Source: Escherichia coli
GTDB taxonomy: Bacteria > Pseudomonadota > Gammaproteobacteria > Enterobacterales > Enterobacteriaceae
NCBI RefSeq assembly: GCF_024298765.1
Contig: NZ_CP101210.1
Strand: one strand, 5' to 3'
DNA: 64,000 nucleotides
Made by a program: the position numbers and the translations under genes. A model generated the notes under the pieces. The model saw nothing but the letters and a program-made list of their open reading frames with translations. It did not search any database and was not told the origin of the DNA. This document shows, piece after piece, positions 1 through 43,615 of the stretch (its first letter is position 1; each line of letters starts with the position of its first letter).

Positions 1-326
1 CGATCGGCTTCTACCGTACCAGGGTTCGCTTCCATAGTAATTTCTGCATCCGCTGCCAGCGGCAAACGCGCACGCACGCCGTCCAGCAGCGTTTGCATCG
101 CCGGGCCGGAAAGCAGGCTCGGCGTACCACCGCCAATAAAGATTGTCTTTACTTCACGGCCCTGAGCGTAAGCCACATCGTTGTCCAGATCGTTAAGCAG
201 ATGCTGAACATAATCGTCGTGCGGCACTTCTCCTTTCAACGCGTGAGAGTTGAAATCGCAGTACGGGCATTTCTGTACGCACCACGGGATGTGAATGTAG
301 AGACTCAGCGGCGGTAATTTAACCAT
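1..326 (-). CDS. hemW: Radical SAM heme chaperone HemW (YggW), N-terminal part; gene runs off the left edge of the window
   Basis: Reverse-strand translation from ATG at 326 reads [28 protein letters not shown] with the CxxxCxxC radical-SAM motif; start overlaps the rdgB stop by 8 nt. Not in ORF track because it is truncated. Confidence 0.85.
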
Positions 327-912
327 TACGTAAAGCGTCCAGCAGCAGTTTCAACGCCTGACCACGGTGGGAAATGGCGCTCTTTTCTTCGCGGGTCAGT
401 TCGGCAGCGGTTTTCCCTTCGGAAGGAACGAAGAAAATTGGATCATAACCAAAGCCACCAGTACCCGCTGGTTCACGAGTAATCACACCCGGCCAGCTGC
501 CGTGGCACACCAGCGGAGTGGGATCTTCCGCGTGACGCAGATATACCAGCACGCAGTGGAAACGTGCCTGACGTTGGTCGTCCGGTACGTCTTTCAGTGT
601 TTCCAGCAATTTTTGCAGATTCTTTTGATCGGTCGCGTCTTCACCGGAATAACGCGCGGAGTAAATTCCCGGCGCACCGCCAAGTACATCTACCGCCAGA
701 CCGGAGTCGTCGGCAATTGCCGGTAAACCGGTCACTTTTGCCGCATGGCGCGCTTTCAGAATCGCGTTTTCGATAAAGGTCAGGCCGGTTTCTTCAGCGG
801 AATCTACGCCGAGGTCTGTTTGGGCCACGATATCAAGACCGAAGTCGCTAAGCAGCGACGCCAGCTCACGCACTTTACCGGCATTGCCGGTTGCGAGGAC
901 AACTTTTTGCAT
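319..912 (-). CDS. rdgB: dITP/XTP pyrophosphatase RdgB (197 aa)
   Basis: ORF 319..1008 contains [16 protein letters not shown]...; start trimmed to the internal Met giving 197 aa, matching recalled RdgB. Confidence 0.9.
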
Positions 913-919
913 AGGATAC

Positions 920-1210
920 CTAATTAAGTAACGCCGCGATTTCTGGCGGGATTTGTTGCGGATTAATGATTTTAATTTGTTTGTGGCGGCCAAGTTCGCC
1001 TTTTTCAATCACCACCTGGCTTTTGGCAACCCGGAATTGCTTACCGAGAAACTTCACCAGATGGCTGTTGGCCTGGCCGTCAACCGGCGGCGCGGTTATG
1101 GCGACTTTTACCTCGTCGCCATGTAAACCGACAATAGAATCACGGCTGGCTTTCGGCTGAATATAGAGCCGTAAAACCAGACCGTCATCATTAATTGTTA
1201 CGGCACTCAT
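920..1210 (-). CDS. yggU: DUF167 protein YggU (96 aa)
   Basis: ORF 920..1222; start placed at the Met of [10 protein letters not shown]..., which forms an ATGA overlap with the yggT stop. The 100-aa alternative start at 1222 is possible. Confidence 0.75.
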
Positions 1211-1773
1211 AACGCCATCCACAGCCCCGGCAGCAGCATGTTTCCGGTTGCCTGTAATACTTCTGCGACACCCATATTGATGACATACAACAGCAGAACG
1301 AGGATCATCGGCGAGAAATCAATCCCACCCATTGCCGGTAGCAGGCGGCGAATCGGGCGCAGCAGCGGATCGGCCAGCTGAATCAGCACGTATTCAATCG
1401 GGCTACGCCCCTGGCTTACCCAGCTCATAATCGCCATCACCAGCAGGACCCAGAAAATCAGCAGGCCGATGGTTTTCAGCAGAATCAGTAAACCGGCAAT
1501 CCAAATGATTGGCAGAAAGGTCACCACTTTAAACAGCACGATGGCTTTGATGAAACTGAGAATGTACGCAACCAGCAGTGAGGCGCTGTCAATGGGCCCC
1601 ATTGCCGGAATAACGCGGCGCAGTGGCCCGATAATTGGCTGCGTTACCTTCACTACAAACTGTGAGAAGGGGTTGTAAAAATCACAATGAGCCCACTGCA
1701 TCCAGATGCGTAATAACAGCACCATGGTATACAGCTCAATGACCGTTGAAAGCAGGAAAGTCAACGTATTCAT
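1207..1773 (-). CDS. yggT: YggT family inner-membrane protein (188 aa)
   Basis: ORF 1207..1773; hydrophobic multi-TM translation; position between yggS and yggU. Confidence 0.9.
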
Positions 1774-1790
1774 GGCGTTCCTTTAATTCC

Positions 1791-2495
1791 TTATTTTTTA
1801 GAGTAATCACGCGCACCAAAAATTGCAGTGCCGATACGAACCATCGTGCTACCTGCCGCAATGGCGGCTTCCATATCGTCCGACATTCCCAGAGAGAGCG
1901 TGTCGATATGCGGGTAGCGTGTTTTCAGTCCGGCAAATGCTACAGCCATTTGGCGTGCAACTTCAAACTGCCTTACATATTCTGACTCAGGTGCAGGGAT
2001 TGCCATCAGCCCGCGCAGACGTAAACGCGGTAGTTCAGCGACCGCAGCTGCCAGCTCGTCCAGTTCAGCCAGTTGAATCCCGGACTTACTGTTTTCATCA
2101 CTAATATTAATTTGAATCAGTACGTTAAGAGGGGGAAGTTCTGCCGGGCGCTGATCGTTGAGGCGGGTAGCAATGCGCAAACGGTCGATGGTATGACACC
2201 AGTCGAAATGCTCTGCCACCAGGCGGCTTTTATTAGACTGCAACGGGCCAATAAAATGCCATTCTAATCCTGTTACGCCCAGTTCCTGAAAGTGGCGAAT
2301 TTTATCTACCCCTTCCTGAACGTAGTTTTCACCAAATTGACGCTGCCCGGCATCAATGGCTTCTGCGATGGCGCTCGCAGGTTTTGTTTTACTGACTGCA
2401 AGCAGCGTAATTTCTTCTGGAGAACGGCCGCAACGCGTTGCAGCCGCTGAGATTTTGTCCCGGACCTGTGCCAGGTTATGCGCAATATCGTTCAT
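1791..2495 (-). CDS. yggS: PLP-homeostasis protein YggS (234 aa)
   Basis: ORF 1791..2495; translation MNDIAHNLAQVRDKI...LAVSKTKP matches recalled YggS. Confidence 0.9.
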   Translation of the reverse strand: MNDIAHNLAQVRDKISAAATRCGRSPEEITLLAVSKTKPASAIAEAIDAGQRQFGENYVQEGVDKIRHFQELGVTGLEWHFIGPLQSNKSRLVAEHFDWCHTIDRLRIATRLNDQRPAELPPLNVLIQINISDENSKSGIQLAELDELAAAVAELPRLRLRGLMAIPAPESEYVRQFEVARQMAVAFAGLKTRYPHIDTLSLGMSDDMEAAIAAGSTMVRIGTAIFGARDYSKK

Positions 2496-42169: not shown

Positions 42170-42310
42170 GGTAAAGCCCTCACCGAAGCGAGGGCTTGAA
42201 GGAGAAGGGTTATGATGCGACTTGTCATCATACTGATTGTACTGTTACTCATAAGTTTCCCAGCTTATTAACAGTCAGTCTCAGGGGAGGAGTCATCCTC
42301 CCTTACCCTT
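42170..42310 (-). ncRNA. sibC: SibC antisense sRNA (antitoxin of ibsC); ends approximate
   Basis: Minus-strand sigma70-like promoter (TTGACA-17 nt-TAATTT) at 42318..42346 reads antisense across ibsC; minus-strand hairpin at about 42160..42190 could be its terminator. Boundaries inferred, not measured. Confidence 0.5.
42212..42271 (+). CDS. ibsC: Type I toxin IbsC-like small hydrophobic peptide (19 aa)
   Basis: ggagaagggtt SD then atgatgcgacttgtcatcatactgattgtactgttactcataagtttcccagcttattaa, translating MMRLVIILIVLLLISFPAY; serA-ygfA intergenic position matches the known ibsC/sibC locus. Confidence 0.6.
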   Translation: MMRLVIILIVLLLISFPAY

Positions 42311-42317
42311 ACTCACT

Positions 42318-42346
42318 AAATTAGGTTAAAGAATCAACGATGTCAA
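42318..42346 (-). promoter_or_regulatory. Putative sigma70 promoter of sibC
   Basis: Minus-strand ttgaca (plus 42341..42346), 17-nt spacer, taattt (plus 42318..42323). Confidence 0.4.
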
Positions 42347-42371: not shown

Positions 42372-42920
42372 TCACCACTCCCAGACTTTCGACGGTGTAA
42401 CCACCGCAGGAAGAGGGATATCCCACTCTTCAACGGGGAGTTTTTCCACTAACTGACAATCATGCGCATAACCCACCGGTTGCATTTTATAGTGCTGCCA
42501 GTTTTGTAAGGTCCGATCATAAAAACCACCGCCCATTCCCAGGCGCTGACCGTACTCATCAAAGGCGACCAGCGGTGTGATCAACACGTCTAATCGGGAA
42601 AGGGGTAGCACGTCACGCACATCCAGTTTTGGCTCATGGATCTTCAACCTGTTCATCACCAGTTCGCTTTGCGGATGGTAATTCAGGAACAGCAAATTAC
42701 CGGCACTGAAGGGATGCAAAACTGGAAGATATACGCGCTTACCGGCGCGCCAGAGTTGTTCTATGAGTGGCAGGGTGTCGAGTTCGCCATCAAAAGAGAG
42801 GAATACAGCGACCGTATGTGCCATCACCACCGGGGGATAAGTCATCATCCGGGTAGCGGCTTGTTGACCCATTTCCTGCTGTTGTTCCGGCGTTAACGCA
42901 CGACGACGTTGCCGAATCAT
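42372..42920 (-). CDS. ygfA: 5-formyltetrahydrofolate cyclo-ligase YgfA (182 aa)
   Basis: ORF 42372..43118 trimmed to MIRQRRRALTPEQQQEMGQQ; the ORF-track extension runs into ssrS and is not coding. Confidence 0.85.
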   Translation of the reverse strand: MIRQRRRALTPEQQQEMGQQAATRMMTYPPVVMAHTVAVFLSFDGELDTLPLIEQLWRAGKRVYLPVLHPFSAGNLLFLNYHPQSELVMNRLKIHEPKLDVRDVLPLSRLDVLITPLVAFDEYGQRLGMGGGFYDRTLQNWQHYKMQPVGYAHDCQLVEKLPVEEWDIPLPAVVTPSKVWEW

Positions 42921-42993
42921 TTTGCGGATTTCTTGTCGGGATAATGTCAGTGGGAGTTCTGGTAGTTGCGTCATGGCTGGTGCCAGATAAGAA

Positions 42994-43178
42994 GGAAATC
43001 TCCGAGATGCCGCCGCAGGCTGTAACCCTTGAACCCTTGGTTCAAGGTGAATGTGTCGTCGCAGTTTTAAGGCTTCTCGGACGGACCGAGCATGCTCACC
43101 AACCGCGGAGCGCCACATTCTTGTGGTATGAAATATCGGCTCAGGGGACTGGCCCGCTTGCGAACATCTCAGAGAAAT
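42994..43178 (-). ncRNA. ssrS: 6S RNA (SsrS), RNA polymerase-binding regulatory RNA
   Basis: Minus strand reads AUUUCUCUGAGAUGUUCGCAAGCGGGCCAGUCCCCUGAGCCGAUAUUUCAUACCACAAGAAUGUGGCGCUCCGCGG..., matching recalled E. coli 6S RNA; immediately upstream of ygfA. Confidence 0.85.

Positions 43179-43219: not shown

Positions 43220-43615
<396 letters not shown>

Follow-up and report, generated by a model that had tools for sequence, protein, structure and literature searches.

How far does the coding sequence of fau (ygfA) reach towards the 6S RNA gene that precedes it, and does any protein-coding frame enter the RNA itself? The question arises from a 64,000-nucleotide stretch of Escherichia coli DNA (hereafter the window; positions are numbered from its first letter), in which the ORF list holds a 248-aa open reading frame on the minus strand (42372..43118). 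An earlier note, made from the sequence alone, had reported this ORF correctly. It also proposed that the first 66 codons overlap the 6S RNA and are spurious, that the real YgfA starts at 42920, and that ygfA is co-transcribed with the RNA directly upstream of it.

The annotated records give the window locus the ordinary E. coli gene order: ygfB, zapA, ssrS, fau (ygfA), ibsC/sibC and serA. Of 5426 complete E. coli genomes, 5425 contain the 1451-nt region at 95–100% identity. Upstream lies zapA (109 aa; 43220..43549, minus strand), which is present in the ORF list and the annotated records and matches PF05164 (E 8.7e-21). The downstream neighbour is the annotated sibC antitoxin RNA region (42196..42346, minus strand; RF00113, 136.5 bits; threshold 56), and opposite to it the plus strand carries the annotated ibsC toxin ORF of 19 codons (ATGATGCGACTTGTC..., 42212..42271). 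The two form a type I toxin–antitoxin pair placed between fau and serA. Scanning the whole window at the Rfam gathering threshold returned two matches only, 6S RNA (RF00013) and SIB_RNA (RF00113). This is the textbook 6S locus of E. coli, already known, and it holds no new biology.

The RF00013 match covers the full length of the model (positions 1–187 of 187) and scores 139.7 bits (E 2.3e-28), against a curated threshold of 46.4 bits. It places the 184-nt ssrS RNA at 42995..43178 on the minus strand, the same place as in the PGAP annotation and directly upstream of fau, as proposed. The limits previously given, 42994..43178, hold to within one base; the Rfam match begins at 42995, and the K-12 ssrS annotation corresponds to 42996..43178, that is, it ends one base earlier than the match. 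Alignment to K-12 ssrS showed 183 of 184 bases to be identical. The sole difference, at 42996 (6S nucleotide 183; T/U in the window, C in K-12), lies in the unpaired 3′ tail and adjoins the 6S processing end. C is the base at the equivalent position in the best-matching E. coli genomes and in every one of the 32 other enterobacterial 6S sequences; among 5424 complete E. coli genomes, just 4 carry the T variant when it is searched as an exact 61-mer. That 42995..43178 is 6S RNA is beyond reasonable doubt.

The fold of this RNA is upheld by covariation. In an alignment of 33 enterobacterial sequences, the consensus fold has 57 pairs, eight of which show compensatory double changes, for example columns 74–117 (CG in 13, UA in 11) and 78–113 (UA in 23, CG in 8). 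These changes maintain the rod-like architecture of closing stem, central bubble and terminal stem-loop. We also compared 80 species-level Enterobacteriaceae loci around ygfA, in which 6S was placed by BLAST and the coordinates were confirmed by covariance model in eight. In 79 of these, 6S precedes ygfA; across the 79 species it aligns without gaps at a mean identity to the window of 96.1%, against 72% for the adjoining coding sequence. The exception is Superficieibacter electus (L064), where 6S is absent within 1.3 kb upstream of ygfA and the ssrS–ygfA linkage is broken. In that locus the end of a 325-aa ORF (252..1229) overlaps the ATG of ygfA (1226..1828), and the upstream "MT..." start is kept. 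6S RNA mimics open promoter DNA and sequesters the sigma70 RNA polymerase holoenzyme. The linkage of 6S and ygfA is conserved in gamma-proteobacteria (PMC4064990, PMC2848244), and the RNA binds the sigma70 holoenzyme and serves as template for pRNA synthesis (PMC3299989, PMC2848244). Given its identity to K-12 6S, the window RNA would be expected to do the same in both respects.

The protein encoded after the RNA exceeds the curated cut-offs of three family profiles: PF01812 (160.6 bits, E 5.4e-47; cut-off 27), TIGR02727 (177 bits; cut-off 84.9) and NF007661 (443.6 bits; cut-off 343). It also contains GMGGGFYDR, an instance of the G-x-G-G-G-[FY]-Y-D-R loop, which is invariant in the ygfA protein alignment. 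[quoted passage not shown] The genetic evidence comes from the K-12 gene: in a ygfA deletion strain 5-formyl-THF accumulates and glycine is unusable as sole nitrogen source (PMC3223725, PMC9426524).

Two in-frame ATGs are candidates for the start of this gene. The first, at 42974, lies 21 nt past the 3′ end of 6S and opens a frame of 200 aa plus stop (42372..42974, minus strand). The second (42918..42920, minus strand) lies 54 nt further downstream, encodes Met19 of the 200-aa form, and is the start in the 182-aa model of K-12 (coding sequence of 549 nt) and UniProt. The K-12 equivalents of the two positions are 3056187 and 3056241, respectively. An in-frame ATG is indeed present at 42920, where the earlier note had set the start of YgfA; however, the family profiles, conservation of the upstream ATG, the codon pattern, Arg17 and the PGAP annotation all point to 42974, which is very probably the true start. 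PF01812 and TIGR02727 both align from profile position 1 at ORF residue 61, equivalent to Arg13 of the 200-aa form, and so begin six residues before Met19. NF007661, a profile of 198 positions, aligns from ORF residue 52 over positions 2–198. PGAP annotates fau as 603 nt and 200 aa (WP_001318026.1) from the ATG equivalent to 42974, and the 200-aa sequence is present on at least 1000 contigs.

The conserved first methionine in protein alignments is partly a product of gene callers, a point addressed by analysing start codons at the DNA level in 81 Enterobacteriaceae sequences. An ATG lies between 6S and Arg13 in 80 of the 81. Its distance from Arg13 is exactly 10 residues in 74 of them and 12 residues in Escherichia; in the window, 42974 is the sole in-frame ATG, GTG or TTG from the 3′ end of 6S to Arg13. 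Codons 13–18 (RQEIRK; 42921..42938, minus strand), with which helix 1 and the Pfam and TIGRFAM profiles begin, lie upstream of the K-12 start, and here the relatives differ from the window by 109/13/233 at the three codon positions. Six synonymous codons serve for Arg13 (CGA 39, CGG 9, AGA 11, CGT 10, CGC 11, AGG 1), CAA (45) or CAG (35) for Gln14, and CGC (52), CGT (28) or CGG (1) for Arg17. This concentration of change at synonymous sites indicates translation in frame upstream of 42920; protein-level selection acts on codons 13–18. Codons 2–12 (42939..42971), in turn, form a poorly conserved N-terminal tail that is predicted to be disordered, and a two-codon Escherichia insertion (Leu-Thr) relative to the 198-aa orthologues falls within them.

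The wider family agrees with the upstream start. A set of 131 diverse full-length representatives, drawn from 50%-identity clusters, has R in the Arg17 column in 129 cases, R or K in column 13 in 106, and L or I in column 16 in 120. At the Met19 column, by comparison, most have Q, T or H, and only one of the 131 begins at or past it. The [KR]-x-x-[LI]-R helix motif is complete in the 200-aa form (RQEIR, residues 13–17) and incomplete in the 182-aa form. An AlphaFold2 model of moderate quality (mean pLDDT 69), built from a shallow alignment and consulted for the helix boundary alone, has helix 1 at residues 13–26 and shows no structure for residues 1–12 (pLDDT under 50 for residues 1–9). The 182-aa form would lack the opening two turns of this helix and, with them, the family-invariant Arg17.

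Ribosome-binding signals fail to tell the two starts apart, because neither ATG has a Shine–Dalgarno (SD) motif. The SD strengths of the candidate fau starts are −1.5 and −0.7 kcal/mol, compared with −7.1 kcal/mol for zapA, and none of the 81 relatives reaches −6 kcal/mol. Our literature search found no experimental N-terminus for Fau: the N-terminomics supplements hold no ygfA, fau or b2912 entry, and the gene goes unmentioned in the text of a Ribo-RET preprint. Initiation at 42974 predicts the N-terminal peptide MTQLPELPLTLSR, or TQLPELPLTLSR after loss of Met, and initiation at 42920 predicts MIRQR.... A ygfA start-codon mutant, M2, was reportedly made by Trotochaud and Wassarman in 2004.

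Two other readings of the start deserve weighing against initiation at 42974. Under the K-12 model, which the earlier note shared, Fau starts at 42920 and the 75 nt after 6S are an untranslated leader, which would be conserved for roles at the RNA level, Rho loading or processing for example. In its favour, this 182-aa protein is retained in the curated K-12 record and in UniProt (5FCL_ECOLI), the missing SD motif is common to both starts, and the tract after 6S is C-rich and G-poor, as Rho loading would favour. Yet only 8 of the 81 Enterobacteriaceae have ATG at the codon aligned with 42920, and none has GTG or TTG; in the others the codon is CAG, CTG, CTC, TTA and so on, and most species are therefore unable to start there. 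The synonymous changes in codons 13–18, the six Arg13 codons among them, the invariance of Arg17 in the wider family, and the profiles and solved structures that begin before Met19 all speak against an untranslated leader, and we regard this model as improbable. A double start in Escherichia, with a 182-aa isoform made alongside the 200-aa enzyme, is similarly unlikely. Such a pair would fit the in-frame ATG at codon 19 in Escherichia, Pseudocitrobacter and Citrobacter amalonaticus, and the lack of an SD motif at both sites, neither of which is clearly favoured; against it, the internal ATG is unconserved, and the short form would be left without Arg13, Arg17 and half of helix 1. The K-12/UniProt model of Fau is very probably truncated at its N-terminus. 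Plasmid-borne "E. coli ygfA" is reported to complement a ygfA deletion (PMC3223725); should the clone have encoded the 182-aa form, residues 1–18 would be dispensable under overexpression.

A start at 42974 also changes what is to be explained about the 248-aa ORF. Relative to the 42920 start, the ORF has 66 extra codons (248 − 182), made up of 124 nt in 6S, a 20-nt spacer and 54 nt. Not all 66 overlap the RNA, as had been claimed: the overlap (43118..42995) amounts to 124 nt, or about 41 codons. Nor is the whole extension spurious, since its last 18 codons (42974..42921), opening with the in-frame ATG at 42974, behave as genuine coding sequence. What remains is a 48-codon extension (42975..43118, minus strand) comprising the 124 nt of 6S and the spacer. 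Within the overlap, relatives differ from the window by 180/156/157 at the three codon positions, showing no codon periodicity, whereas 120 codons of the genuine gene give 1864/823/5474. An in-frame stop occurs inside 6S in 64 of the 80 related loci and after 6S in 13, and thus in 77 altogether; the frame is open through the whole of 6S in three, all Escherichia (E. coli, E. albertii). Pfam and NCBIfam searches found no model covering ORF residues 1–48. The ATG at 43118 has no SD motif (+0.3 kcal/mol) and sits within a 6S helix (alignment columns 59–65 paired with 124–130). These data argue decisively against the 248-aa ORF being real and the 6S region being dual-function, coding as well as non-coding, a reading to which we assign almost no probability. 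In its favour, E. coli and E. albertii keep the frame open across 6S, and gene callers report the 248-aa product. With periodicity absent and stops frequent, the reading is effectively refuted and was rejected. The extension into 6S is almost certainly spurious; the 248-aa ORF is a chance open frame across an RNA gene, specific to Escherichia.

Transcription of the unit would begin at promoter-like sites just upstream of 6S. A consensus scan identified a proximal site for ssrS (P1; 43194..43223, minus strand) consisting of ATGACA, an 18-nt spacer and TG-n-TAGAGT. The transcription start that it implies, at about 43187, precedes the mature 5′ end of 6S by 9 nt, in agreement with the reported P1 start. 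By eye, we located a putative distal site (P2) within zapA (TTGCAA, 17-nt spacer, TAGAGT; 43410..43438, minus strand), which matches 8 of 12 consensus positions and falls under the threshold of the scan. The start implied here, at about 43402 (−224), presumably corresponds to that of Kim and Lee (2004), and the site is a plausible candidate for the distal ssrS promoter P2. The −10 hexamer TAGAGT is common to both sites, of which the distal falls within the coding sequence of zapA. Between 6S and the fau ATG, the consensus scan found neither promoter-like nor terminator-like sites. The terminator scan returned a single site, inside fau (42545..42530), which is not above chance expectation.

The spacer between the 3′ end of 6S and the fau ATG (42975..42994, minus strand) is 20 nt long, pyrimidine-rich and devoid of an SD motif. 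Its length is 15–30 nt in most of the 80 relatives, and C makes up 0.37 of it, T 0.31 and G 0.12. Longer spacers of 57–126 nt occur in L029, L053, L055, L058 (Klebsiella), L051, L070, L071, L073 (Raoultella), L063 and L072; the sequence inserted in L029 (1199..1300) is AT-rich. The uniform lack of an SD motif in 81 sequences suggests that initiation of fau is SD-independent and probably weak. The spacer is also the first part of a C-rich, G-poor, rut-like tract of 90 nt (42905..42994, minus strand), which extends over the first ~23 codons of fau; with the start at 42974, these codons make the tract translated sequence. The tract contains C at 0.33 and G at 0.16 in the window (mean of 80 relatives, 0.34 and 0.15), as against 0.29 and 0.28 over the next 450 nt in the 80 relatives. 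This is the composition expected of a rut site, and the tract may act in Rho loading.

Rho termination at ssrS–ygfA is said to have been described by Chae in 2011. Published work on the pair bears out that ssrS and ygfA are co-transcribed, as the earlier note had held, and reports that formation of the 6S 3′ end is Rho-dependent and takes place within ygfA (PMC2848244, PMC3299989, PMC4064990). We propose the following order of events. Transcripts from the promoter-like sites would carry 6S, the pyrimidine-rich spacer and then the ATG at 42974, from which the 200-aa 5-formyltetrahydrofolate cyclo-ligase would be made. Weak, SD-less initiation at this ATG would leave the C-rich tract open to Rho on most transcripts. 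Those terminated by Rho would yield 6S after 3′ trimming, and Fau would be produced only from transcripts that are read through or translated. It is conceivable, though on balance doubtful, that inefficient initiation at 42974 competes directly with Rho and thereby sets the ratio of 6S-only to Fau read-through transcripts. We hold with good confidence that the stretch is the E. coli ssrS–fau (6S RNA–ygfA) dual-function transcription unit, with fau beginning at 42974.

The practical value of these findings lies in annotation. The locus is a clean and quantified case in which protein-only gene calling swallows a regulatory RNA, as had been suspected: the exact 248-aa product is called on 49 public contigs, and its cluster of 2588 members is represented by a 248-aa sequence. 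Comparative evidence also contradicts the start codon of the K-12 reference, and the automated PGAP call appears to be right. Since PGAP already carries the favoured start, the sole friction is with the curated 182-aa model of K-12 and UniProt. Expressing "YgfA" according to the K-12 annotation would give a protein without the family-invariant arginine, and when Rho termination "at the start of ygfA" is interpreted, that start belongs 54 nt earlier.

Compared with known systems, the locus in the window most closely resembles the ssrS–fau unit of K-12 (b2911–b2912), sharing the order zapA, ssrS, fau, sibC/ibsC, serA, 98.8% identity over 1451 nt and a 6S RNA one base apart. Unlike K-12 Fau, the window protein has the two substitutions L68Q and M164T (200-aa numbering), and the K-12 record sets the fau start 54 nt further downstream than the evidence supports. 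The PGAP/NCBIfam Fau (NF007661; WP_001318026.1) has the same start at 42974 and the same length of 200 aa, with no difference of substance. Relative to the 198-aa orthologues, Escherichia Fau carries an extra LT in its variable N-terminal tail. Solved cyclo-ligases, namely human MTHFS (3hxt), the Bacillus anthracis enzyme (2jcb), B. subtilis YqgN (1ydm) and the Aquifex aeolicus protein (1sou), match the domain end to end, with similarity that is only distant (E 7e-23 to 7e-16). Their own N-termini align from window residues 12–14 of the 200-aa form, and Arg13 and Arg17 stand opposite Lys10 and Arg14 of human MTHFS and the first residues of the bacterial structures. The 12-residue tail of the window protein (MTQLPELPLTLS) is predicted to be disordered and has no counterpart in these structures. 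Human Lys10 and Arg14 reportedly have a role in ATP binding (UniProt; Wu et al. 2009).
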